A stretch of 64,000 nt of DNA from a bacterium (GCA_030430165.1 JAUIGL010000012.1:6137-70136), one strand, 5' to 3'. Counted from the stretch's first letter, positions 2,140 to 59,821 are shown. The notes: generated by a model not told the origin, from the sequence alone. Program-made: numbers and translations.

Positions 2140-3600
2140 ATGGGTAAGGTAACTGGATTTCTCGAAATCGATCGGGCGATACCGGCGCGTCGGCCGGTCG
2201 AGGATCGCCTCAAGGACTGGCGCGAGCTCGAGGGCAAGTGGTCGGACGAAAAGCTGCAGGACCAGGGCGCGCGCTGCATGGATTGCGGCATTCCGTTCTG
2301 TCACACCGGCTGTCCGCTGGGGAACATCATCCCCGACTGGAACGACCTGATCTACCGCGGTCGCTGGGAAGACGCGATCGAGCGCCTGCACTCGACCAAT
2401 AACTTTCCCGAGTTCACCGGACGCATCTGCCCGGCCCCGTGTGAAGAAGCCTGCGTGCTCAACATCAACAACGATCCGGTCACGATCAAGCTGATCGAGA
2501 AGCAGACCATCGATCACGCGCTCGGCGCCGGTTGGGTGAAGCCCCAGGTGTCGCCGACCAAGACCGGCAAGAAAGTGGCGGTCGTCGGCTCCGGTCCGGC
2601 CGGGCTCGCCTGCGCCCAGCAGTTGGCGCGCGCCGGTCACGACGTCACCGTGTACGAGCGCGCCGACCGCGTCGGCGGCTTGCTGCGCTACGGCATTCCC
2701 GACTTCAAGATGGAGAAGCACCTTATCGACTTCCGCATGAAGCAGATGGAAGCCGAAGGGGTGACCTTTCGCGCCGGCACCAACGTCGGTGTCGACGTCA
2801 CCACCGACGAGCTGCGCGATCAGTTCGATGCGATCGTCATTGCCGCGGGCTCGACCAAGCCGCGCGATCTGCCGATTCCCGGGCGCGAGCTCGACGGCGT
2901 CCACTTCGCGATGGATTTCCTGCCGCAGCAAAACAAGGTGGTGGCGGGCGACCGCGTTCCCGAGCAGATCCTGGCGACCGGTAAGCACGTCATCATCCTC
3001 GGCGGCGGCGACACCGGTTCGGACTGTCTAGGCACGTCGAACCGCCAGGGCGCCAAGTCGGTACATCAGTTCGAGCTGATGCCGCAGCCGCCCGACGGTC
3101 GCACCGAGCACATGCCGTGGCCGTACTGGCCGATGATCATGCGCACCTCGAGCTCGCACGAGGAGGGGGTGGTCCGCGACTGGAGCATCAATACCAAGTC
3201 GTTCTCGGGCGAGGGCGGCAAGGTTCAGAAGCTGCACGGAATTCGCCTAGAGTGGCAGACCGACGCGAACGGACGCCCCAGCAAGATGGTCGAGGTGCCC
3301 GGCAGCGAGTTCGAGATGGACGCCGATCTGGTCCTGCTGGCGCTCGGCTTCGTCGGGCCGGAAGAGGGCGGACCGATCACCGATCTCAGCCTCGAGCTCG
3401 ACCAGCGCGGCAACATCGTCGCCGACGACCGCTACATGAGCAGCACCGACGGCGTCTTCGCATGCGGCGACGCGCGGCGCGGCCAGTCGCTCGTGGTGTG
3501 GGCGATCTGGGAAGGGCGCGAGTGCGCCCGCGGTGTCGATCAGTACCTGATGGGCACGACCGATCTGCCGGCGAGCCCGCAGCTGTTCAACGCTCGCTGA
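2140..3600 (+). CDS. gltD: Glutamate synthase small subunit (NADPH-dependent, FAD/NAD-binding, Fe-S)
   Basis: An ATG at 2140 lies 30 nt after the gltB stop, in frame with ORF 787..3600. Motifs are [10 protein letters not shown]...GCPLGN (Fe-S) and [12 protein letters not shown] (Rossmann). The upstream part of the long ORF overlaps gltB in another frame and is spurious. Confidence 0.9.
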
Positions 3601-3671: not shown

Positions 3672-5054
<1,383 letters not shown>

Positions 5055-6439: not shown

Positions 6440-7567
6440 ATGACCGTTCCCGGCGAATGTTGGGACGTCGACGAGCTGCGCGGTCAGCGCAGGAAGATCC
6501 CCGCAGGCCCGGGGGTCTATGTGTTCGTCGGCGGCGACGGTGTGCCCGTCTACGTTGGCAAGAGCGTCAACCTGCGGTCGCGATTGGCGAGCTACCTGGG
6601 ATCGGGCGACCGCCGGCGTAAGGAGTCGCGCATCGCGCAGGCGGCGGAGTCGGTTCATCTCGAACCGGCAGGCTCGGAGTTCGCGGCGTTGTTGCGCGAG
6701 CTCGAGCTGATCCAGCGCTTTCGCCCGCGGCTCAACCGCCGCATGAAGTCGCCGCAGCGCTACGTCTTCGTCGGCCTCAGCTACGCCGCGGAGTTCCCCT
6801 CGGTTTCGGTTTCCAACGAATGCGAGGACGAGGCGCGCCGCTACCTCGGACCGTTCGTCCAGCGTCGCCGCATCGAGAAGGTCGTCGAGGATCTCAACGA
6901 CGCTTTCGCGCTGCGCACCTGCGAGCCTCTCGCCGACGAGGTTTGTTGGCGCGGCCAGATGCGGCGCTGTAGCCAACCCTGCATCGGCGCAGTCTCTGCG
7001 GGTGAGTACGGCCGCTCGCTGTTGCTGGTGCGCGAGGCCCTCGCCGGGCGGCGCAGCTCGGCGCTGAAGCGCCTGCGCGAGGTACGCAACCAGCACTCGC
7101 AAGCGGAGCGGTTCGAAGCGGCCGGCCGCGCCCAGCAGCGCATCGAAGTGCTCGAACGGATCGGCAAGGTGCTCTACGCGAGCGCGTTGCACGACGGCGA
7201 CGCGCTGATCGCCCTGCCGGCAGTCGAGCCCGGGGTGGTCGACGCCTGGGCGGTGCGCGGCGGCGGAATCGTCGCCTCGCGCCGACTGTCCGGCGACGAG
7301 GCCGCCGCGCCGTATCTCGACCTGCGTCGCGCGATGGCGAGTGCGGCGCCTGTCAGTCCCGTCGCCAAACAGGAGGTCGACCAGCGCTGCATCGTACACG
7401 CCTGGCTGCGGCGACACCGCGACGAGCCCGGCGTGGTCCCGGTGCAGGGCAAGCGCGAAGCCGAGATTCGCGACGATTTCGCGGCGGCGGTGTCGGACGC
7501 CTTGCGAGCGCAGGGGATGCTCGCGGCGCCGCGGCCGGAGCCTGCGGCGGCGCAGCCGACGGCGTAG
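6440..7567 (+). CDS. GIY-YIG nuclease, UvrC N-terminal-half homolog (Cho-like excinuclease)
   Basis: The GIY-YIG motif is GVYVFVGGDGVPVYVGKSVNLRSRLASY, followed by a UvrC-like RYLGPF...FALRTCEP block and a Cys-containing UVR-like helix region. The 375-aa protein has no UvrC C-terminal RNaseH/HhH domain. Confidence 0.6.
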   Translation: MTVPGECWDVDELRGQRRKIPAGPGVYVFVGGDGVPVYVGKSVNLRSRLASYLGSGDRRRKESRIAQAAESVHLEPAGSEFAALLRELELIQRFRPRLNRRMKSPQRYVFVGLSYAAEFPSVSVSNECEDEARRYLGPFVQRRRIEKVVEDLNDAFALRTCEPLADEVCWRGQMRRCSQPCIGAVSAGEYGRSLLLVREALAGRRSSALKRLREVRNQHSQAERFEAAGRAQQRIEVLERIGKVLYASALHDGDALIALPAVEPGVVDAWAVRGGGIVASRRLSGDEAAAPYLDLRRAMASAAPVSPVAKQEVDQRCIVHAWLRRHRDEPGVVPVQGKREAEIRDDFAAAVSDALRAQGMLAAPRPEPAAAQPTA

Positions 7568-7603: not shown

Positions 7604-7622
7604 CCCCCCTTACCAAGGGGGG
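7604..7622. repeat. GC hairpin A: CCCCCC-TTACCAA-GGGGGG
   Basis: Read directly from the sequence. Its loop is the reverse complement of the hairpin B loop. Confidence 0.5.
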
Positions 7623-7696
7623 ACTTCAGGGGGGGCAACCGGGATGCCGTTGGACCGAGATGAGACGCCTGGCGGCGTGGCGTGACCTCCCCCTAA

Positions 7697-7719
7697 CCCC
7701 CTCCTTGGTAAGGAGGGGG
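7697..7719. repeat. GC hairpin B: CCCCCTCC-TTGGTAA-GGAGGGGG (inverted copy of hairpin A element)
   Basis: Read directly from the sequence. Flanking G-runs (GGGGGGG at 7629-7635; CTCCCCCTAA at 7687-7696) also mirror each other. Confidence 0.5.
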
Positions 7720-11815: not shown

Positions 11816-13843
11816 GTGATGCAGTGGCGTGAGCCCGACTTCCTATGGTTGAGCGGTTTGGTCGTATTGCTCGGCGCGGTGCTGGCGCTTGCCCTGCGCG
11901 GCCGGGTGCGCGCTCTCGAACGTTTCGTCGACGCCGATCTCGGCCGTCGTCTCGCGGTGGGCTCGAGTGCGGCGCGCCGCATCGCCTGCGTTGCGTTGCG
12001 GCTGGCTGCCCTGTTGCTGGTGGTGGTCGCGCTGGCCGGCCCGAAGTGGGGCTTTCACTGGGAAGAAGTGCGGCGCGAGGGGATCGATCTGCTGGTGGCG
12101 CTCGACACCTCGCGCAGCATGCTGGCGACCGACGTCAAGCCGAATCGACTGGAGCGGGCCAAGCTCGCCGTGCTCGACCTGCTGCCGCGCCTGCGCGGTG
12201 ATCGCATCGGGCTCGTCGCCTATGCCGGCACTGCGTTTCTCGAGGCGCCGCTGACCTTGGACTACGCCGCCTTCGCGCGCTCGCTGCGCGCGCTCCAGGT
12301 CGGCATCATCCCGCGCGGCGGAACCTCGCTGAGCCGCGCCATCGAAACCAGTCTCGAAGCGTTCGAAGCGCGCCAGGGCAAGTACGAAGCGCTGATTCTG
12401 ATCACCGACGGCGAGGATCACGAGGGCGACGCGCTCGACGCCGCAACGCTCGCCGCCGAGCGCGGGGTGAGGATCTACACGGTCGGCATCGGTACCCCGG
12501 AGGGCGAGCTGTTGCCGCTGCCCGGCGCGACCGCCGGCTACGTCAAGGATCGCAAGGGACAAGTCGTCAAGTCGCGACTGAACGAGGAACTGCTGCGCGA
12601 CATCGCGCTCGACACCGGCGGAGCGTACGTGCGTGGTCTCGGCCCGCAACTCGGTCTCGACGAGGTGTTCGACCAGCACATCGCCAAGATGGAGCGGCGC
12701 GAGGTCGACAGTGGGCTCGAGCGGCGCTTCGAGCATCGCTTTCAGCTGCCGCTGCTGCTGGCGTTGGTCCTGTTGCTGGTCGAGGCCCTGATCGGCGAGC
12801 GACCGGGGCGGGCGCGCGGCTGGTTGGCGAGGTTGAGCCGCAACCGCGCCGCGGCTTCCGCCTCGATCCTCTGGCTCGCCGTCGCGTTCGCCGAACCGGT
12901 ACCAGCCGGCCTGCTCGACTTCGAGGACCATCCCATCAACCAGGGCGTCGAAGCGTTCGAGCGGGGCGACTACGAGGCAGCGGTCGAAACCTTTGGCGAC
13001 GCTCTGGTGGAGTCGCCGGCCGATCCCCAGCTGCAGTTCGACCTCGGCGCCGCGCTGTACAAGCAGGGGCGCTACGAGGAGGCGATCGCGACGCTCGAGA
13101 AAGCGGCGACCGAGGGCGGCGAGAAATGGGCCGCGCCGGCCAACTACAACCTCGGCAACGCCTACTACCGCGCCGGCGCGGAGACCGAAGGCGAGCAACC
13201 ACAGCAGACACTCGAGCGCTGGGCGCAGGCGCTTTTGGCCTACCGGCGCGCGCTCGCCGTCGATCCGGCCGACGAAGATGCCCAGTTCAATCACGAGCTG
13301 GTGCAGAAGCGAATCGACGAGCTGCGCCAGCGTCTCGAGGACGAGCAGCAGGAAGAGCAGGAACAGGAACAACAGCCCGACGGCGACCAGCAGCAGGAGC
13401 AGGAGGAGCAGTCGGACGGCGAGCAGGAAGAGGGCGAAGAGCAGCAGGAGTCCGAGCAGGGCGAGCAGGAGCGACAGCAGGAGCAGGGTGAGCAGGAGCA
13501 GGGCGAGCAGCAGCAAGACGACTCGCAACAGCCCGACTCCGAGGCAGGAGAGGAGCAGCCACAGCCCGAGGAGTCCGAGGCCGGGGAGCAGGACGAGGAG
13601 GCGGCCGACGACGCTGCCGAGCAGCAGCCGCAAGACGAGCAGCCGGCCGACGAGCCGCAGCAGGAGGAGCAGCCGGCGGCGCAGGGCGGCGGCGAGGCGA
13701 CGGCGTCCGACGAAGAGCGAGCCGCGGAGGAGCAGGCCGCCCAGGCGGTGCTCGACACGGCGCGCGAGGAAGAGCTCGGTCCGCAGGACATCGAGCGCCG
13801 CACCGGCGTTGCCGGTGTCGGCGATCCGATGCAGGATTGGTAG
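11816..13843 (+). CDS. VWA + TPR fusion protein (BatB/BatC-like) with about 170-aa Glu/Gln-rich acidic C-terminal tail
   Basis: The MIDAS motif is DLLVALDTSRSM, followed by TPR-like repeats (YNLGNAYYRAG, YRRALAVDP) and an EQQEEQEQEQQ... low-complexity region. Confidence 0.75.
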   Translation: MMQWREPDFLWLSGLVVLLGAVLALALRGRVRALERFVDADLGRRLAVGSSAARRIACVALRLAALLLVVVALAGPKWGFHWEEVRREGIDLLVALDTSRSMLATDVKPNRLERAKLAVLDLLPRLRGDRIGLVAYAGTAFLEAPLTLDYAAFARSLRALQVGIIPRGGTSLSRAIETSLEAFEARQGKYEALILITDGEDHEGDALDAATLAAERGVRIYTVGIGTPEGELLPLPGATAGYVKDRKGQVVKSRLNEELLRDIALDTGGAYVRGLGPQLGLDEVFDQHIAKMERREVDSGLERRFEHRFQLPLLLALVLLLVEALIGERPGRARGWLARLSRNRAAASASILWLAVAFAEPVPAGLLDFEDHPINQGVEAFERGDYEAAVETFGDALVESPADPQLQFDLGAALYKQGRYEEAIATLEKAATEGGEKWAAPANYNLGNAYYRAGAETEGEQPQQTLERWAQALLAYRRALAVDPADEDAQFNHELVQKRIDELRQRLEDEQQEEQEQEQQPDGDQQQEQEEQSDGEQEEGEEQQESEQGEQERQQEQGEQEQGEQQQDDSQQPDSEAGEEQPQPEESEAGEQDEEAADDAAEQQPQDEQPADEPQQEEQPAAQGGGEATASDEERAAEEQAAQAVLDTAREEELGPQDIERRTGVAGVGDPMQDW

Positions 13844-16414: not shown

Positions 16415-16560
16415 AGTCCCTCGATACGCGCTGCGCGCTACTCGGGAACACGGAAGTGGTCGGAAAGACCTCAGCCGACCCGGGCCTTAGCCTCTCCCGT
16501 CTTCCCCGAGTAGCCCGAAGGGCGTATCGAGGGGCCCCCTACTCGGGAATCCGGAGTCGG
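16415..16560. repeat. Cluster of short direct and inverted repeats (CTACTCGGGAA x3; CCCTCGATACGC inverted pair; TAGGGCCCC/GGGGCCCCCTA) in convergent intergenic gap
   Basis: Read directly from the sequence. Confidence 0.35.
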
Positions 16561-30135: not shown

Positions 30136-30196
30136 GGCGGGATATCGCCACAGGCGGATTGGTGGCGCAAGATGGTCACACGAACGGGGAAACGCT

Positions 30197-30357
30197 AGTG
30201 TCCTGAACCAGAAGTTCGTTGCAAGAGTCGTCGAGCAATTGGCGTCCGTGCCAAGGCGCGACGACGAGGAATATCGGGAATATTTGGAGGAGGAGTAACG
30301 CTGGCAGGGCCGGCAAGGGCCGGCGAGGTTTGTGACGAACTCTGGTTCAGGACACTA
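30197..30357. promoter_or_regulatory. 25-bp inverted-repeat pair (CTAGTGTCCTGAACCAGAAGTTCGT ... ACGAACTCTGGTTCAGGACACTAG) bracketing about 110 bp in a divergent promoter region
   Basis: Read directly from the sequence. The interior holds GGAATATCGGGAATATTT and GCCGGCAAGGGCCGGC palindromes. Confidence 0.35.
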
Positions 30358-30403
30358 GGCTGCAGCCGGCTGTGCCTGAGGGATGAGGGAGCGCGATACA
30401 GCG

Positions 30404-53560: not shown

Positions 53561-54730
53561 GTGAAGCCCGCGGTCCGGCGGCTTGCAGTCGCCCTGGTGA
53601 TCACCAGCGCCGGGGCGTTGCCGGTGTTTCTGACATCGGCTCTGGTCCTGCAGATCGCCGCCGATCTCGGTTTCGAGATCGAGCGCCTCGGCATCGCGGT
53701 CGGTCTCTACTTCGTCGCCGGTGTCTTCAGCTCGCTGCTGATGGGGCGCCTGTCGGAGCGGATCGGCGCCGCGGCGGCGCTGCGTCTGGGCGGTGTTCTG
53801 AGCGCCCTCTGCCTGGTGCTCGTGTCCGTGGTCGACAGCTTCGGCGCACTGTGCGCGTGCTTGTTTCTCGGCGGGATCTGCAACGCCCTGTGCCAGCCGG
53901 CCGCCAACTTGTACGTCACTCGCGGCATCTCGGCCGGACGGCGCGGGTTGGCGTTGGCGCTCAAGCAGTCGGCGATCCCGGCGGCGACGATGCTGGGCGG
54001 GCTCGCGGTGCCGCTGATCGCGCTCACGGTGGGGTGGCGTTGGGCCTTCGTCGGCGCTGCCGCGGCGGCGCTGGTGACCGCTATGCTGATTCCACCGGTG
54101 GTCGTTCCCGCCCGCGCCGCGAACGTCGATGACGAAGGCCGCGCGCCGCTGCTGGCGATGCTGTTGTTGGCGGCCACCGTCGGTTTGGGAGCGGCGGGCG
54201 CCAATTGCCTCGCGTCGTTCGCCGTCGCCGGCGCGGTACGCATCGGGATCGGCGACGGTGCCGCGGGGTGGCTGGTGGCGGCGGGGTCGGCGCTGGCGGT
54301 GCTCACCCGCATTGCCTTGGGGCACCGCGCCGACCGCAAGGGCGCCGGGCACCTGCTGATGGTGCGCCTGATGCTCGTATGCGGCACCTTCGGCGCTCTC
54401 GGCCTGGCGACCAATTCAATCCCGTTGTTCGTCAGCGCAGTGCCGATGGTCTTCAGCTTCGGCTGGGGCTGGCCGGGGCTCTTCAACCTGGCCGTGATCA
54501 AGCACAACCCGACCGCGCCGGGAGCGGCGACCGGCTTCACCCAAACCGGCACCTACCTCGGTGCTGCGCTCGGTCCGATGCTGTTCGGCCTGGTTGCCGA
54601 TCGCGTCGGATGGGACCTCGCCTGGACGCTGGTTCCGGCCTTCTTCGGTCTCGGTGCCATTGCCGCCACGCTGGCACGCCACCAACTGCTTCGTTGGCTG
54701 GCCGCAGCAACGATGTTGCCACCGAAGTGA
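53561..54730 (+). CDS. MFS transporter
   Basis: The 12-TM profile, the GR(L/K)SER-like motif (GRLSERIG) and the internal duplication are typical of MFS transporters. Confidence 0.75.
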   Translation: MKPAVRRLAVALVITSAGALPVFLTSALVLQIAADLGFEIERLGIAVGLYFVAGVFSSLLMGRLSERIGAAAALRLGGVLSALCLVLVSVVDSFGALCACLFLGGICNALCQPAANLYVTRGISAGRRGLALALKQSAIPAATMLGGLAVPLIALTVGWRWAFVGAAAAALVTAMLIPPVVVPARAANVDDEGRAPLLAMLLLAATVGLGAAGANCLASFAVAGAVRIGIGDGAAGWLVAAGSALAVLTRIALGHRADRKGAGHLLMVRLMLVCGTFGALGLATNSIPLFVSAVPMVFSFGWGWPGLFNLAVIKHNPTAPGAATGFTQTGTYLGAALGPMLFGLVADRVGWDLAWTLVPAFFGLGAIAATLARHQLLRWLAAATMLPPK

Positions 54731-55089
54731 CGCTTCCCCCCGTGGGGGCCCTTCGAGCGGGCGTCGGCCTCCGTGATGGGCAGCCCGCGGGAGGTGACGT
54801 ATGCGATCGAATCGGAAGAGGGCGGTGCCGCGACTCGGCTGGTGGATCGGCGCGGCCCTGGTGTTTCTACTGCTGGCTCTGGTCGTGCTGGGCGTGAGTG
54901 TCCCGGCCGGCGCCGCGGAGGAAAAGCCCGAGCGACGGCGCCAGTCGCAAGCGCGTGAGCAGCGCGTGCTGCGTCAGAGTCGCGGCGAGCGCGGCCACGT
55001 TCGCCGCCGCGCCGACCGCATCGACAAGCGCTCCCGGGTCGAGAAGAAGCCGGGCTGGCGCCGCGTCGAGTGAGGTCGGAGGAATCTTC

Positions 55090-55236
55090 AGCCGCAGATG
55101 AACGCTGACTTGCGCCGATCTTTTCTCCACGGGTGAACACGGAAAGCACGGATTGGGTCGTTTGCCATCCGTGTCCTCCGTGTTCACCCGTGGGCCCCTA
55201 TCAGCTATCTGCGTTCATCAGCGTCCATCTGCGGCT
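55090..55236. mobile_element. MITE/REP-like element copy 1: 19-bp terminal inverted repeats AGCCGCAGATGAACGCTGA / TCAGCGTCCATCTGCGGCT enclosing 17-bp inner hairpin CCACGGGTGAACACGGA...TCCGTGTTCACCCGTGG
   Basis: Read directly from the sequence; it has no coding capacity. Confidence 0.5.
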
Positions 55237-55245
55237 CGAAGTCGA

Positions 55246-56436
55246 TTATGCGGGATACGCTTCGAACAGCGCCGCGGCGCCCATGCCGCCGCCGATGCAC
55301 ATGGTGACGATGCCCCACTTCTTCTTGCGGCGGCGCAGCTCGAGCAGGATGGCGCCGGTCTGGCGCGCGCCGGTCATGCCGTAGGGGTGGCCGATCGAGA
55401 TCGCTCCGCCGTTGACGTTGAGCTTGTCGGGGTCGATGCCGAGACGGTCGCGGATGTAGACGGTCTGCGAAGCGAACGCCTCGTTGAGCTCGATCAGGTC
55501 GATGTCCTCGAGCTTCTTGCCCTGGCGCTGCAGCAGGGTCGGGATGGCGAACACCGGACCGATCCCCATCTCGTCGGGCTCACAGCCGGAGATGACCAGG
55601 CCGTGGTAGGCGCCGAGCGGCTTCAGGTTGCGCCTCTCGGCCTCCTTGTCGCTCATCATCACCAGCGCCGCGGCGCCGTCGGACAGCTGCGAGGCGTTGC
55701 CGGCGGTCACCGAGCCGCCTTCCTTGAACGCGCCCTTGAGCTGCGACAGGCCTTCGAGCGTGGTGTTGGGGCGCGGACCTTCGTCCATCGCCACGTCGAG
55801 CTCGACCTCCGAGGTTTCGCCGGTCGCCTTGTCGGTCTTCTGCATGGTGACGTGCATCGGCGCGATCTCGTCGGCGAGGGCGCCCGATTCCATGGCCGCG
55901 GCGGTGCGCATCTGCGACGACAGCGCGTACTCGTCCTGCGACTCGCGCGTCACGTTGTAGCGCTCGGCGACGACCTCGGCGGTGTCGCCCATCGCCATGT
56001 AGATCTCGGGCTTGTGCTCCTGCACCCAGGGATTGATGTAGTCGTGGAGGTTGAGGTTGGCCTGGACGCGCGAGATCGACTCGACGCCGCAGGCCACCGT
56101 GACCGGCACGTCGTCGACGACGATGCGCTGGGCGGCGACCGAAACCGCCTGCAGGCCCGACGAGCAGTAGCGGTTGATGGTCGTGCCAGCGGTGGTGACC
56201 GGACATCCGGCGCGGATCGCGGCGACGCGGGCGACGTTGTTGCCGGTCGACCCTTCGGGGAGTCCGCAGCCGGCGACGACGTCCTCGACCGCTTCGGCTT
56301 CGATGCCCGAGCGCTCGATGGCGTGCTGGATGGCGTGGCCGAGCAGGTCCGCGCCGTGGGTGAGGTTGTATGCTCCGCGAAACGCCTTGCCGATCGGCGT
56401 CCGCGCAGTGGAGACGATCACTGCTTGCTTGGCCAT
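55246..56436 (-). CDS. Acetyl-CoA C-acetyltransferase (thiolase II)
   Basis: The N-terminal Cys region (NRYCSSGLQAV), the C-terminal GHPYGMTGAR and the CIGGGMGAA signatures are present. Confidence 0.9.
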   Translation of the reverse strand: MAKQAVIVSTARTPIGKAFRGAYNLTHGADLLGHAIQHAIERSGIEAEAVEDVVAGCGLPEGSTGNNVARVAAIRAGCPVTTAGTTINRYCSSGLQAVSVAAQRIVVDDVPVTVACGVESISRVQANLNLHDYINPWVQEHKPEIYMAMGDTAEVVAERYNVTRESQDEYALSSQMRTAAAMESGALADEIAPMHVTMQKTDKATGETSEVELDVAMDEGPRPNTTLEGLSQLKGAFKEGGSVTAGNASQLSDGAAALVMMSDKEAERRNLKPLGAYHGLVISGCEPDEMGIGPVFAIPTLLQRQGKKLEDIDLIELNEAFASQTVYIRDRLGIDPDKLNVNGGAISIGHPYGMTGARQTGAILLELRRRKKKWGIVTMCIGGGMGAAALFEAYPA

Positions 56437-56570
56437 GATGGTGAACTCCTATTCAGTTTGGGGAATCTGCGAATCGTCGCGCTTTTGCGGAGCAGCGTCA
56501 ACCGCGTCTGGGGAGCATGGAAGGGGATGGGGGTCTGGTTTTCTCTCTCGCGCCAAGGGGTTTCTGGTTC

Positions 56571-56748
56571 TTTTTTCTCGCGCCAAGACGCCAAGGCGCC
56601 AAGGGGGGCCTAGGTCTTCTGGGTTGATTGGCTAGACGATTATAACTGCTCTATTTATATCACTTCGCTTGGGTGGGTTTCTGAAGCCCCAAAAACCAAA
56701 AGCCCCCTTGGCGCCTTGGCGCCTTGGCGTCTTGGCGCGAGAAAAAAA
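56571..56748. repeat. IR-flanked AT-rich island: 38-46-bp near-perfect inverted arms built from GCGCCAAG(G) units around about 95-bp low-GC core
   Basis: The left arm is TTTTTTCTCGCGCCAAGACGCCAAGGCGCCAAGGGGGG. The right arm is its reverse complement with one extra CGCCAAGG unit. The core contains TTGATT...TATAAC and, on the minus strand, TTATAAT. Confidence 0.5.
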
Positions 56749-56775
56749 CGGAAAACCCGATTCCCCGAGAGCCAG

Positions 56776-57735
56776 CTATTCGATCAGGGCGGCGCTGCGC
56801 GACAGGATTGTTTCGGCTTCGCGGACCATGGATTCGACGACCTCGCTGGCGGGGACGATTTCGCTGATGCCGCCGATGCCCTGGCCGGCGGGCATGCAGG
56901 TGCGGTCGGTGTCGATGCCTTCCTCGACGGCGTAGCCCATCACCCCGGCGGAGAAGCTCTTGGCGATTTGCTCGGGGAAGCGCTGGATCGACTCGGCGTG
57001 GCGTTCCTGCTCTTCGACGTAGGGGTTGTTGATGACGCGCATCGGCTTGCCGGAGTAGCAGCGGCTGATGATGGTGTCGCCGCCGCCGCGCTCGGTGATC
57101 AGCTGCTTGAACTCCTTCGCCGCGCGCGCCTCGGTGGTGGCGATGAAGCGCGTGCCGACCCAAACGCCGTCGGCGCCGAGGGCGAGGGCGGCGGCGAGGC
57201 CGCGGCCGTCGACGATCGATCCGGCGCCGAGCACCGGAATGTCGACGGCGTCGACGATCTGCGGGATCAGCGCCATCGCGGCGACGCGCCCGGTGTGGCC
57301 GCCGGCTTCGGTGCCCTGCGCCACCACCATGTCGCAGCCGGCTTCTTCGGCGCGCACCGCGTGCTCGACCCGGCCGCACATCGACACCACCTTGAGTCCG
57401 GCGTCGTGCAGCTTGCCGATCACCGGACCGGGCACGCCGAGGCCGGCGATGAACGAGGAAGCGCCCTCTTCGATGATGACGTCGATCGCCGCCACCATCT
57501 GCTCGGGCAGGGCGGCGAGCAGGTCGACGCCGAACGGTTTGTCAGTCAGCTCGCGGACCCGCTGCATCTGCTTGCGGATTCCCTCGGGGCTCTCGGTCGC
57601 CATGCCGAGCGTCCCGTAGCCGCCGGCCTGCGACACCGCGGCGCACACCTCGGCGTAGGCGACCTGGCCCATCCCGGCGAGGAATACCGGGTGCTCGATT
57701 GCAAACATCTCACAGACGCGGGTTTTGATTGTCAT
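56776..57735 (-). CDS. Nitronate monooxygenase (NMO, 2-nitropropane dioxygenase-like) FMN-dependent TIM-barrel
   Basis: The N-terminus FAIEHPVFLAGMG, the motif VVAQGTEAGGH and the 319-aa length fit NMO. Confidence 0.8.
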   Translation of the reverse strand: MTIKTRVCEMFAIEHPVFLAGMGQVAYAEVCAAVSQAGGYGTLGMATESPEGIRKQMQRVRELTDKPFGVDLLAALPEQMVAAIDVIIEEGASSFIAGLGVPGPVIGKLHDAGLKVVSMCGRVEHAVRAEEAGCDMVVAQGTEAGGHTGRVAAMALIPQIVDAVDIPVLGAGSIVDGRGLAAALALGADGVWVGTRFIATTEARAAKEFKQLITERGGGDTIISRCYSGKPMRVINNPYVEEQERHAESIQRFPEQIAKSFSAGVMGYAVEEGIDTDRTCMPAGQGIGGISEIVPASEVVESMVREAETILSRSAALIE

Positions 57736-57790
57736 GGCTGTCTCCTGCGGGTACTCCGGCCACTCTTACTAAGTGGGCGGGGGGAAAAGA

Positions 57791-57819
57791 AGCCGCAGAT
57801 GAACGCGGATGAACGCTGA
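57791..57819. repeat. Solo or partial copy of the MITE-like terminal repeat (AGCCGCAGATGAACGCGGATGAACGCTGA)
   Basis: Same terminus as the elements at 55090 and 58924, with an internal GATGAACGC duplication and no matching right end nearby. Confidence 0.4.
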
Positions 57820-57885
57820 TTGGGTTTCCAGTCGAGCCGCTGCTGATGGATTTGCCACGGGGGCGGTTGCGTGGTGAGTGGAGCC

Positions 57886-58890
57886 ATGGAGATTGGACTG
57901 ATTCTCACCGCGGGAAAGCCGCGGGGCAACGTCGACCTGGCGGTCCGTGCCGAGCAGGCCGGGTTTTCGGCCGTGCTCAGCATCGAGTTCTTCAACCAGC
58001 ACGCCTTCGCGGTTCTCGGCGCGATCGCGCAGGCGACCGACAGGATCGGCATCGGCACCGGTATTGCCAACGCCTTCACCCGCTCGCCGCTGGTGCACGC
58101 CAACGCGGCGATGGATCTCGACGATCTTTCCGACGGCCGAATGATCCTCGGGCTGGGCAGTGCGACGCGCACCATGAACACCGACTGGTGGGGCGTGCCG
58201 TTCTTCAAGCCGGCGCGACGGATGCACGAGGAGGTGCGCCTGATCCGCGAGATCTTCGCCGCCGGCGATGGCTTCGGCTTTCGCTTCGAGGGCGAGTTCT
58301 GGAATCTCAAGATCGCCGCGTTCACGCGCCCCGGGGCGCGCAAGGACCTGCCGATCTGGGTGGCGGCGGTCAACGCGCCGATGATGCGCACCGCCGGCCG
58401 CGTCGCCGACGGACTGGTCGGTCATCCGATCGCGACCCGCAGCTGGCACCGCGAGCGCACCCTGCCGGCACTGCGCGCCGCCGAGGCGGAGGCGGAGCGC
58501 GCGGAAGGTGCGTGCCGTTTGGTTCCCTACGTGCTGACCTCGCTACACCAGGACCGCGACCGCGCCGTTGCCAACGCCAAGAAGCAGATCGGTTTCTACT
58601 TCACCTCGAAGCTCTACCACACGATCCTCGAGCACCACGGCATGGGCGAGGTCGGCGCCGAGTGCCACCGCGCGCTCAAGTCGTTCGACATCAAGGCGAT
58701 GGCCGCCGCGATTCCGGACGAGCTGGTCGACGCCATCGCCATCGCCGGTACTCCGGACGAGGCGCGCGATCGCCTGCAGCAGTGGCAGGGGCTGTGCGAC
58801 GAGGTGCTGCTCTACGCGCCGACCATCGCCGTCTCACCCGAGGATCTCGAAGCAAACCACGCGGCGATGTTCGAAGTGTTCAGTCGCTGA
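57886..58890 (+). CDS. LLM-class (luciferase-like) flavin- or F420-dependent oxidoreductase
   Basis: The MEIGLIL start is followed by an AGFSAVLSIEFF...RIGIGTGIANAFTRSPL...LGLGS TIM-barrel LLM pattern. A GTG at 57871 is an alternative start. Confidence 0.8.
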   Translation: MEIGLILTAGKPRGNVDLAVRAEQAGFSAVLSIEFFNQHAFAVLGAIAQATDRIGIGTGIANAFTRSPLVHANAAMDLDDLSDGRMILGLGSATRTMNTDWWGVPFFKPARRMHEEVRLIREIFAAGDGFGFRFEGEFWNLKIAAFTRPGARKDLPIWVAAVNAPMMRTAGRVADGLVGHPIATRSWHRERTLPALRAAEAEAERAEGACRLVPYVLTSLHQDRDRAVANAKKQIGFYFTSKLYHTILEHHGMGEVGAECHRALKSFDIKAMAAAIPDELVDAIAIAGTPDEARDRLQQWQGLCDEVLLYAPTIAVSPEDLEANHAAMFEVFSR

Positions 58891-58923
58891 GAGACAGGTT
58901 CGAAGAAAAAACTAGCCGCAGAT

Positions 58924-59063
58924 ACACGCAGATTTTCGCAGATGCCCCGATCCACGGATGAACACGGGAGACACGGATGGCGAGGGCTCAGCCCGTGTTC
59001 TCCGTGTTCACCCGTGGAAAAGAATCAGCGCAAATCAGCGTCCATCTGCGGCTAAAGATTCTA
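58924..59063. mobile_element. MITE/REP-like element copy 3 (termini AGCCGCAGATACACGCAGA... / ...TCAGCGTCCATCTGCGGCT, inner hairpin CCACGGATGAACACGG...CCGTGTTCACCCGTGG)
   Basis: Read directly from the sequence; it lies in the convergent gap between the LLM and amidotransferase genes. Confidence 0.5.
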
Positions 59064-59077
59064 TCCCAGCCTACCCC

Positions 59078-59821
59078 TCAGCGGCTCGGCAGCTGCCGAT
59101 AGACCTTGCGCTCTCCGAACAGCCGGACGAAGTTGCGGAAGGTGGTGTCGGCGAGTTGGCTCAGTCGAGCCATGTGGCGCGCCGTCTCCTCGCGGATCTG
59201 ATCCGGCCCGGGCGGGCCCTTGAGGGCGTGCAGCTCCTCCTGGTGCGACGGGATCTTGAGCCAGCGCTCGATCAGCGAGGGGTCGACCTCCATGTGGAAC
59301 TGGAAGCCGTAGACCTTGTCGCCGTAGCGGAAGGCCTGGTTCGGACAGCCGGGCGAGCTGGCGAGGTGCACCGCACCGTCGGGGATGGCGAAGGTATCGC
59401 CGTGCCATTGGAAGATCTGCTCGCTCTCGTCGAAGTGCTGCAGCAGCGGGTCGTCGGCCGCCTCGGCGGTGGGGCGCACGGGATACCAGCCGATTTCTTT
59501 CTCGGGGCTGGGGGCGACGTCGGCGCCGAGCGCCTTGGCGACCAGCTGCGCGCCGAGACAGATCCCGAGGATCGGCATTTTGCGCTCGATCGCTTTGCGG
59601 ATCAGCCGCACCTCGGTGTCGAGGTGCGGGTGCCGGTCGGTCTGATCGACGTTCATCGGCCCGCCGAGAACCACCAGCCCGTGGTAGCCTTCGATGTTCG
59701 GCTCGGCGTCGGGGTGGCGGCTGTAGTTGACGTAACGGATGCGGAAACCCGCGTCTTTCAGCAGCGGGTTGAGGGTGCCGAGGATCTCGAAGGCGACGTG
59801 TTGAAAGACGAGCAGCTTCAC
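59078..59821 (-). CDS. Class I glutamine amidotransferase-like protein (GATase1, GMP-synthase-N-terminal-like)
   Basis: LVVLGGPMNV, the Cys nucleophile GICLGAQL and HMEVD are present. The GTG start at 59821 is inferred; the upstream part of ORF 59078..59980 is Arg-rich and not credible. Confidence 0.7.
   Translation of the reverse strand: MKLLVFQHVAFEILGTLNPLLKDAGFRIRYVNYSRHPDAEPNIEGYHGLVVLGGPMNVDQTDRHPHLDTEVRLIRKAIERKMPILGICLGAQLVAKALGADVAPSPEKEIGWYPVRPTAEAADDPLLQHFDESEQIFQWHGDTFAIPDGAVHLASSPGCPNQAFRYGDKVYGFQFHMEVDPSLIERWLKIPSHQEELHALKGPPGPDQIREETARHMARLSQLADTTFRNFVRLFGERKVYRQLPSR

Follow-up and report, generated by a model that had tools for sequence, protein, structure and literature searches.

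Nested, word-built palindromes in the intergenic gaps of a bacterial contig: probable members of a widespread REP/REPIN-like superfamily

Introduction

Within 4 kb of a 64,000-nt stretch of bacterial DNA (GCA_030430165.1 JAUIGL010000012.1:6137-70136; this whole stretch is referred to here as the window), three intergenic gaps hold pieces of a small repeat with inverted arms, which raises the question of what kind of element it is and how it came to be there. An earlier note on this DNA had seen in it the architecture of either a miniature inverted-repeat transposable element (MITE) or a repeat of the repetitive extragenic palindromic (REP) or bacterial interspersed mosaic element (BIME) type, and had predicted a dispersed family, possibly mobilized in trans by an insertion sequence (IS). 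To address this question, a detailed reading of positions 54900-59300 and an inverted-repeat search were combined with scans of genomes, metagenomes, plasmids and viral contigs. The three sites are genuine copies of a small hairpin-forming repeat built from 10-nt words. We consider it probable that they are REP/REPIN-like non-autonomous palindromic repeats of a very widespread intergenic superfamily, and not classical MITEs.

Results

Two complete copies and a solo arm share one nested design

The two complete elements of the window, copy 1 (147 nt) and copy 2 (140 nt), each comprise a hairpin of CACGGAT-type words inside the loop of a hairpin of CGCAGAT-type words; the third site is a single three-word arm without a partner (Table 1). 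The outer 30-nt arms are 80-84% complementary in both copies (80% in copy 1), with the terminal 10-11 nt pairing perfectly, and the inner arm pairs are of about 27 nt each (89% complementary in copy 1). Tandem Repeats Finder detected a 10-nt period at the solo arm and at 55207-55233. Sequence reading, repeat search and shuffle tests agree that all three sites proposed in the earlier note exist, and copy 1 lies exactly where it was placed. Other details required revision. Copy 2 had been put at 58924-59063; its length was right, yet its termini AGCCGCAGAT... / ...CATCTGCGGCT lie 10 nt further left. The 19-bp terminal repeats said to be shared by the copies are real inasmuch as an identical 19-mer, TCAGCGTCCATCTGCGGCT, forms one end of each, although its reverse complement matches the left end at 18 of 19 positions in copy 1 and at 16 of 19 in copy 2. 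Likewise, the inner hairpin CCACGGGTGAACACGG / CCGTGTTCACCCGTGG, reported as perfect, is so in copy 1, whereas copy 2 carries a single A.C mismatch. The third site does hold one arm, but what had been read as an internal duplication within it is the normal succession of three words.

This structure is far from random. The terminal 16-mer, allowing up to three mismatches, occurs eight times in the window against an expectation of 1.4, a count reached in none of 100 shuffles, and the inner 16-mer is found at its four expected places only. When folded as RNA, copy 1 reaches -96 kcal/mol (z = -11.2) and copy 2 -82.4 kcal/mol (z = -10.0), and none of 200 shuffles of either folds as well. At 140-147 nt, the full copies leave no room for an open reading frame (ORF). 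Copy 2 is inverted with respect to copy 1 (77% identity in opposite orientation, 73% in the same orientation). In both, the terminal inner word is CACGGGT, the second word is CACGGAG-like, and one end is the identical 19-mer; these derived features identify them as copies of one composite. Together with a close relative that holds three such elements, this comparison indicates that the nested composite spread as a unit.

The arms recur in genomes labelled as different phyla

To look beyond the window, a terminus pattern (AGCCGCAGATGRACGC) was scanned against one genome per species (596 Gb, both strands), which returned at least 120 loci. For a 16-mer with one two-fold position, about 550 chance matches are calculated in 596 Gb, so single matches inside genes (Pseudomonas, Streptomyces and others) are noise. 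Among the 120 terminus-scan matches listed, however, about 48 possess a genuine hairpin or three-word arm, with centres unrelated to one another; the full structure reads AGCCGCAGATGAACGCAGATGAACGCAGAT ... ATCTGCGTTCATCTGCGTTCATCTGCGGCT. According to the titles of metagenome-assembled genomes (MAGs), carriers among the matches listed comprise Acidobacteriota (Solibacteraceae, Pyrinomonadaceae, Bryobacterales, Vicinamibacterales, Blastocatellia), Planctomycetota (Tepidisphaerales, Phycisphaerae, Pirellulaceae), Gemmatimonadota, Acidiferrobacterales, Burkholderiales and Ectothiorhodospiraceae, and several MAGs carry two to six of these loci each. Several carrier contigs are 0.2-2 Mb long, and mis-binning therefore does not explain the taxonomic spread. 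Nucleotide comparison thus indicates that genomes with different phylum labels have the same 30-nt arm sequences in common.

The inner hairpin is similarly widespread. A metagenome scan with a pattern of 30 specified bases gave matches in soil, peat, freshwater and human-gut assemblies among those listed, and the CACGGAT hairpin also stands alone, in the form (TT)[A/G]GC-CACGGATGAA-CACGGAT[G/A]AA-CACGGATAAG - loop - mirror image. A plasmid search with the CGCAGAT consensus returned three records, and the CACGGAT consensus matched no plasmid; a canonical element of three plus three words resides on plasmid pSM-2 of the cultured Skermanella mucosa, and a solo arm on a Dolichospermum plasmid. Viral contigs yielded two loci only. 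On one phage-like contig (L248), two CACGGAT hairpins (1961-2028 and 3921-3985) lie between what appear, from translated ORFs, to be structural genes. The dispersed family predicted in the earlier note is hence borne out for both arm types and is wider than was supposed there; the three window sites are clearly not its only occurrences. Full-text string searches with the arm sequences, in literature covered incompletely, found no description of the arms and only primer coincidences, and a literature search for MITEs in Acidobacteria and Planctomycetes surfaced only a survey of REPs (PMC3733652).

Two further loci display unusual arrangements. In a contig labelled Candidatus Methanoperedens (L036, 200-700), CGCAAAG-, CGCAGAT-, CGCGGAT- and CACGGAT-type hairpins are adjacent; three large ORFs adjoin word hairpins there, and a type I restriction-modification identity for them is a guess from ORF lengths only. 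In L174 (12253-12359), two CGCCGAT-word arms stand end to end, ...GGCGGCTAAAATCG - about 50 nt - CCTCAGCCGCCGAT..., the reverse of the usual hairpin arrangement.

Conserved arms surround variable centres

To characterize the family as a whole, a detector requiring at least two CRCNGAT cores 8-13 nt apart and a mirror arm within 260 nt was run on 1.69 Mb of element-bearing loci. It identified 163 hairpins and 93 solo arms; exactly three plus three words were present in 80 of the 163 hairpins, and the median length is 78 nt. The arm consensus is (TT)[A/G]GC-CRCNGAT GAA-CRCNGAT RAA-CRCNGAT, normally with three phased 10-nt words around a variable centre. A logo of the ends features words phased strictly at 10 nt and a GC cap; outside the cap, T-T-[A/G] is preferred and there is weak A-richness 11-14 nt out, with the information fading about 5 nt outside the first word. 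At the variable word positions, agreement between the two ends of an element reaches 0.96 and 0.89, well above the level set by base frequencies, so the arms are kept complementary. Across the wider family it is the arms that are conserved, and not the centres or the whole unit: whole-length homology holds for the window copies and their counterparts in the close relative L255 (73-85% identity), whereas other members share the arms only.

Telomerase-like addition of words at DNA breaks was entertained as an origin of such arrays and is countered by the defined, in-register, GC-capped ends. DnaA boxes, parS, CsrA sites, direct repeats of the OmpR/PhoB type and Neisseria DNA uptake sequences were considered as candidate identities for the words and dropped for lack of fit.

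Nesting is also seen in L199, L021, L028, L023 and the L131 group, and 7 of 151 hairpins pass a strict ungapped test for it. The L131 group (L131 1335-1560, with relatives L154, L226, L155, L147, L239 and L134) comes from peat metagenomes and represents a palindrome of about 220 nt, with ends GACTCCTGAT ... ATCAGGAGTC and a CACGGAT hairpin at its centre. Its copies differ in word number; L155, for example, has two words on one arm and five on the other. These were initially candidates for orthologous sites, an idea abandoned since their alignment suggests copies of the larger element instead, and no tRNA was found at the sites.

Elements turn over between close relatives while arm sequence is retained

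The most informative relative is L255, a JGI contig of 7949 nt that shares the gene order of the window and is about 91% identical to it in DNA. Here the counterpart of copy 1 is present twice in direct orientation (region 2570-3194; E1, 2586-2733; E2, about 3037-3185), with an insert of 314 nt between the two. A 76-aa ORF in this insert (2812-3042, MVKTQVQIPDRLYREAKRV...) runs into the E2 terminus, where its stop codon is located; searches of Pfam and NCBIfam gave no match for it. The unit of ORF plus element resembles a cassette-type gain or loss. In the divergent gap between the nitronate monooxygenase (NMO) and luciferase-like monooxygenase (LLM) genes, L255 has the same solo arm at the same place and in addition a full CACGGAT hairpin that the window lacks, the site measuring about 225 nt against 7 nt in the window. 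A hairpin of another word, GCGCCAAG, is complete in the window; of this hairpin L255 has the left arm alone, with 45 nt against the 219 nt of the window. Lastly, the L255 counterpart of copy 2 (6860-7004) has its innermost stem and loop inverted (CACGGATGGCGAGGGCTCAGCCCGTG versus CACGGGCTGAGCCCTCTTCATCCGTG), as expected of recombination between the arms. These comparisons indicate that close relatives differ through gain, loss, duplication and internal inversion of elements.

The duplicated unit raises the possibility that the elements are recombination sites, similar to the attC sites of integrons, that capture small gene cassettes. An ORF-plus-element unit between direct copies faces a single copy in the window, the ORF stop lies in the terminus, and the ORF product weakly resembles antitoxin VapB26 (E = 0.038), antitoxins being common cassette cargo; conserved ends around a variable centre are likewise a trait of attC sites. 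However, this is a single case, which homologous recombination between two copies explains equally well. The candidate ends GATGAAC / GTTCATC break the Y and R positions of RYYYAAC / GTTRRRY, the neighbours are ordinary metabolic genes in conserved synteny, and no recombinase recurs nearby. Cassette capture is thus very unlikely to be what these elements do.

Orthologous elements of the window and L255 are 84-85% identical (85% for copy 1), a level near that of the third codon positions of the neighbouring genes (79-85%). The differences are unevenly distributed, affecting 21 of 230 arm positions and 19 of 63 positions in loops and spacers (Fisher p = 9e-5). The rate of change in the arms is therefore about three times below that of loops and spacers, and roughly half that of neighbouring third codon positions. 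Within the inner arms of copy 1, the 54 positions differ from E1 at one and from E2 at none. The exact word sequence, and not pairing alone, is evidently kept. Arm constraint and the identity of words across phyla together suggest either a sequence-specific factor or continual conversion to the family consensus.

Four more distant relatives are syntenic, with LLM proteins about 80% identical (L241, L242, L244, L245), and turnover in their corresponding gaps is rapid: these gaps are empty, hold members of the same family, or are filled with hairpins of other words. Between LLM and the class-I glutamine amidotransferase (GATase) gene, the window has 187 nt with copy 2, L241 an empty 5 nt, L242 54 nt of GGGGCGAG words, and L245 78 nt without words. 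Before the thiolase stop, where the window has copy 1, L242 has a hairpin of AGTGAGG heptamer words; between thiolase and NMO, the GCGCCAAG-word hairpin of the window (56520-56765) is matched in L242 by a GGGAACC-word hairpin. In the NMO-LLM gap, where the window holds the solo arm, L242 and L244 have CRCNGAT-type arms beside the NMO start, which suggests that occupancy of that gap by the family is old. Hairpins made of words seem to be general in this Binatia-like group. In many of its intergenic gaps, 7-nt words (GGGAACC; CACCAGT; CCTTTGC) form arrays, often arranged as inverted pairs, as at L242 4484-4730, 7807-8028 and 10321-10532 and L245 1293-1454 and 2424-2570.

No mobilizing enzyme was found beside the elements

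If the elements were classical MITEs, they would have arisen from an IS by deletion, and the DDE transposase of that IS, bound to their terminal inverted repeats, would move them by cut-and-paste and leave target-site duplications (TSDs). Such a reading has its attractions. The elements are small, non-coding and intergenic with terminal inverted repeats and no ORF, they occur as dispersed copies, include nested insertions and differ in presence between relatives; moreover, a T often precedes the terminal [A/G]GCC, which bears a superficial likeness to a TA target. Bacterial MITEs such as Correia/NEMIS, Nezha and Chunjie share this general build. However, 149 distinct elements, tested at boundary offsets 0-9 for duplications of 2-8 nt, have direct repeats only at the level expected from re-pairing their flanks at random, at all 10 offsets; the sole exception is a palindromic GC that is itself part of the stem. 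There are no TSDs at either window copy. The flanking T/A belongs to the palindrome and is weakly correlated between the two ends, and centres and lengths vary freely, unlike copies of one MITE.

The search for a transposase was similarly negative. In the 1.69 Mb of loci, arm pairs 0.3-5 kb apart enclose no transposase-like gene, and the genes found between adjacent elements are housekeeping ones (thiolase, tyrosyl-tRNA synthetase, protease). All-against-all clustering of 576 neighbouring proteins revealed no recurrent family and no recurrent recombinase, and no autonomous IS with the same termini was detected in these loci, whether inside the elements or recurrently beside them. With no TSDs and no transposase found in these loci, and with only the 30-nt arms conserved between genomes, the strict MITE reading is not supported, and we regard it as quite unlikely; of the two architectures named in the earlier note, the REP/BIME comparison is the better half. 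The lack of duplications points instead to an enzyme that handles single strands or hairpins rather than to a DDE transposase.

One lead concerned the RAYT tyrosine transposases. Di Nocera et al. (2013, PMC3733652) described an Acidobacteria-specific group of these, and a repeated family of terminal inverted repeats around Koribacter ORF 1552. A tblastn search of all loci with 12 RAYT/TIRYT sequences (from supplement 5 of PMC3733652) gave one unrelated weak match, 3.3 kb from an element. The RAYT clade of Koribacter Acid345_1552 has more than 3000 relatives, 62-87% identical among the top matches listed, and its REP reads GTATCAGGGCACGGCTTC(C)AGCCGTGCC, then CGGGCTTTAGCCCCTGC (L250 2700-3000 and 3487-3540; L253 2900-3000).

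Elements lie close to stop codons, where a hairpin could act on transcripts

All three window sites are intergenic among the thiolase, NMO, LLM and GATase genes, as stated in the earlier note and confirmed by gene coordinates and Pfam. Each full copy occupies nearly all of a convergent gap. On its two sides, copy 1 is separated by 16 nt from the stop of a 90-aa ORF (55073) and by 9 nt from that of the thiolase gene (55246); for copy 2 the distances are 23 nt to the LLM stop (58890) and 24 nt to the GATase stop (59078). The family-wide pattern is similar, with a median distance of 16 nt from a stop codon. Convergent gaps hold 28 of 100 elements and make up 248 of 1234 background gaps (20%), and divergent gaps hold 9 of 100 against 234 of 1234 (19%), so that the former are over-represented and the latter under-represented; these counts come from a crude ORF caller, which got two genes of the window itself wrong. 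This placement fits selection against promoter disruption, or a role at 3' ends.

A host-centred explanation is that the hairpins are immobile, bidirectional terminators or mRNA stabilizers, grown in place by slippage of words and conversion between arms and kept by selection on expression. The nearness to stops, the enrichment in convergent gaps, the near-complete filling of two such gaps in the window and the AGTTTTTTC that follows copy 2 on the minus strand can all be cited in its favour. The same gaps of relatives hold quite different words (AGTGAGG, GGGAACC, GGGGCGAG, GCGCCAAG), word number differs among related copies, and on a phage-like contig two elements sit between apparent structural genes. 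Against this, identical arms of at least 30 nt in differently labelled phyla cannot originate independently, the composite was propagated whole, divergent promoter gaps hold members as well, and exact words are conserved rather than merely their pairing; nor is there a folding advantage of the sense strand or an asymmetry of T-tracts. In-place growth by the host is hence an unlikely origin.

A related comparison is with the bidirectional intrinsic terminators between convergent genes that Ju and colleagues reportedly described in 2019. In both cases, a short gap between convergent genes is filled by a long, GC-rich hairpin whose distance from either stop ranges from a few to about 25 nt. The elements differ in that flanking A/T tracts are weak or absent (a T6 run follows the stem of copy 2 only, and on the minus strand), that the stem is far longer than needed, and that they form a dispersed repeat rather than a locus-specific structure; a simple terminator scan is ill suited to stems this long. 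The terminator or insulator role raised in the earlier note is plausible, as is one as a bidirectional stem-loop barrier or 3'-end protector; the repeat probably also works as a stem-loop at 3' ends.

The stable predicted fold could alternatively belong to a structured small RNA gene, a role that the earlier note had also floated; one example would be an RNA that titrates a protein through repeated GGA motifs. The CACGGAUGA words resemble the CsrA-binding consensus ACARGGAUG. Yet Rfam gave no match at gathering score in the window or 14 element-bearing loci, and below threshold only chance-level matches of miRNA type. Any GGA motifs would be buried in a long duplex, the CGCAGAT-type words have no GGA, there is no promoter-like site and no strand preference, and the loops are the least conserved part. 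A small RNA role is thus unlikely, and that the elements are small RNA genes seems extremely improbable.

Gene context and other repeats of the window

Relatives of the LLM protein belong to MAGs named Candidatus Binatia or Myxococcota, and the source bacterium is probably Binatia-like. The features of the locus are collected in Table 1.

Table 1. Repeat sites and neighbouring genes, in coordinates of the window
Feature	Position	Strand	Sequence or remark	Basis
Major facilitator superfamily (MFS) transporter	53561-54730	+		Pfam
90-aa ORF	54801-55073	+		ORF
Copy 1, complete nested palindromic element	55090-55236		147 nt	Sequence reading, repeat search
Copy 1 outer left arm	55090-55119	+	Three 10-nt words, AGCCGCAGAT GAACGCTGAC TTGCGCCGAT	Inverted repeat
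Copy 1 inner left arm	55127-55153	+	CACGGAT-type words, CCACGGGTGAACACGGAAAGCACGGAT	Inverted repeat
Copy 1 inner right arm	55167-55193	-	ATCCGTGTCCTCCGTGTTCACCCGTGG	Inverted repeat
Copy 1 outer right arm	55207-55236	-	ATCTGCGTTCATCAGCGTCCATCTGCGGCT; words ATCTGCGTTC ATCAGCGTCC ATCTGCGGCT	Inverted repeat
Thiolase	55246-56436	-		Pfam
NMO	56776-57735	-		Pfam
Solo three-word arm	57791-57820	+	AGCCGCAGAT GAACGCGGAT GAACGCTGAT; no partner arm; NMO-LLM gap	
LLM	57886-58890	+		Pfam
Copy 2, complete nested element	58914-59053		140 nt	Sequence reading, repeat search
Copy 2 outer left arm	58914-58943	+	AGCCGCAGAT ACACGCAGAT TTTCGCAGAT	Inverted repeat
Copy 2 inner left arm	58952-58978	+	CCACGGATGAACACGGGAGACACGGAT	Inverted repeat
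Copy 2 inner right arm	58993-59017	-	CCGTGTTCTCCGTGTTCACCCGTGG	Inverted repeat
Copy 2 outer right arm	59024-59053	-	ATCAGCGCAAATCAGCGTCCATCTGCGGCT	Inverted repeat
Class-I GATase	59078-59821	-		Pfam

The window also features repeats of other kinds. The thiolase-NMO gap (56520-56765) holds a different nested inverted repeat of 8-nt words (GCGCCAAG / CTTGGCGC), with 55-nt arms that are 82% complementary. At 30195-30358, two perfectly matching 18-nt inverted arms (CTAGTGTCCTGAACCAGA / TCTGGTTCAGGACACTAG) stand 128 nt apart and enclose a short AGGGCCGGCA tandem; this repeat is MITE-like and not related to the word-hairpin family. Inverted repeats of other families, in intergenic-looking DNA, are found at 7604-7717 (CCCCCCTTACCAAGGGGGG... 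/ ...CCTTGGTAAGGAGGG) and 16418-16533 (CCCTCGATACGC... / ...GCGTATCGAGGG), and dense imperfect tandem repeats of 9, 15 and 42 nt (AGCAGGAGG-like) at 13356-13705 probably represent a low-complexity coding stretch.

Discussion

The closest known kind of element is the REPIN/REP-BIME class, which is mobilized by RAYT (Y1/HUH) transposases (Bertels and Rainey 2011, PMC3116915; PMC3337134; Di Nocera et al. 2013, PMC3733652). As in that class, two short conserved inverted sequences surround a short variable spacer in a hairpin of about 60-150 nt; the elements are extragenic, non-coding, free of TSDs and near gene 3' ends, they occur as singlets, doublets and clusters, and their arms are more conserved than their spacers. 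As with REPINs, it is the hairpin (163 elements) that appears to replicate as a unit, and the composite is copied whole. There are also clear differences. A REP unit is an imperfect palindrome of 20-40 nt, whereas a single arm here consists of three direct decamers, is not self-complementary, and can pair only with the opposite arm. The ends read [A/G]GCC(A/G)C... without the GTAG or CGTC tag of the REP super-families (PMC3733652), and no RAYT is flanked by these arms among the loci. REPIN-RAYT systems are described as mostly vertically inherited within individual bacterial lineages (bioRxiv 10.1101/2022.05.22.493013); the present arms, in contrast, are near-unchanged across genomes labelled as several phyla and on the Skermanella plasmid, and are not lineage-restricted. 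MITEs, as discussed above, share the build of the elements and are set apart by TSDs and by a parental IS, neither of which was found in the 1.69 Mb of loci, and by the fact that here the arms alone are conserved across genomes. We thus view the family as a variant of the REPIN/REP-BIME class, of which the window copies are ordinary members, with the interest residing in the family as a whole.

A further comparison concerns the short tandemly repeated repetitive (STRR) sequences of cyanobacteria, reportedly described by Mazel and colleagues in 1990. These too are intergenic head-to-tail arrays of short words, with several word families per genome, and the Binatia-like loci contain arrays of 7- and 8-nt words of this look. 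The family described here differs in its 10-nt words, normally exactly three per arm, in its inverted pairs with GC-capped ends, and in a word that is shared across phyla.

How might such elements move and persist? The arms are probably read sequence-specifically by a putative trans-acting protein, for which the three words would offer sites one helical turn apart. Elements may spread into permissive intergenic DNA, with a preference for positions just after stop codons and for the loops of existing palindromes. Recombination from arm to arm and from copy to copy would homogenize them, and could carry short DNA segments in or out. Once in place, each copy would give both convergent transcripts a highly stable stem-loop at their 3' ends, where it would serve as a transcription barrier or 3'-end protector. 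A more far-reaching version, which we put forward tentatively and consider doubtful, is that this is a new, horizontally spreading class of palindrome, with a conserved recognizing protein, duplication-free insertion preferentially after stops and into palindrome loops, and an additional role, hinted at by the ORF-plus-element unit of L255, as recombination points for small genes; such a system would cross phyla, unlike known REPINs.

Several observations weigh against the REP/REPIN-like reading, or against an RNA-level role within it. Within the 64-kb window the family is confined to this 4-kb stretch, with three sites. MAG taxon labels can be wrong, and the sole archaeal label (Methanoperedens, L036) is unverified. 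No mobilizing protein was found in the element-bearing loci, and a different REP, GTATCAGGGCACGGCTTCAGCCGTGCC, borders the genes of the inspected RAYT clade (relatives of Koribacter Acid345_1552); the case for mobility accordingly draws on presence/absence differences, copy number and distribution, and not on mechanism. No clean junction between an empty and a filled site was recovered, and the polymorphisms against L255 could be deletions or insertions. The gene-context statistics share the crudeness of their ORF caller. At the RNA level, folding energy does not differ significantly between sense and antisense strands (40 versus 23 elements, Wilcoxon p = 0.17), downstream T-tracts favour neither strand across the family, and copy 1 has no T-run on either side.

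REP, REPIN and MITE palindromes shape bacterial intergenic DNA; as a rule, each is confined to a lineage and linked to a known transposase. The present family retains the same three-decamer, 30-nt arm under Acidobacteriota, Planctomycetota, Gemmatimonadota and Proteobacteria labels as well as in the Binatia-like source, and neither a duplication signature nor a partner enzyme was found for it. The elements mark the points at which close genomes differ, through duplication around a small ORF, inversion of a loop, and presence or absence. As long perfect hairpins between convergent genes, they are likely to bear on how genomes of these mostly uncultured groups are assembled and annotated and on how 3' ends form in them. 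Overall, identifying the factor that reads the words would reveal either a new route of mobilization or a widely shared DNA- or RNA-binding function.

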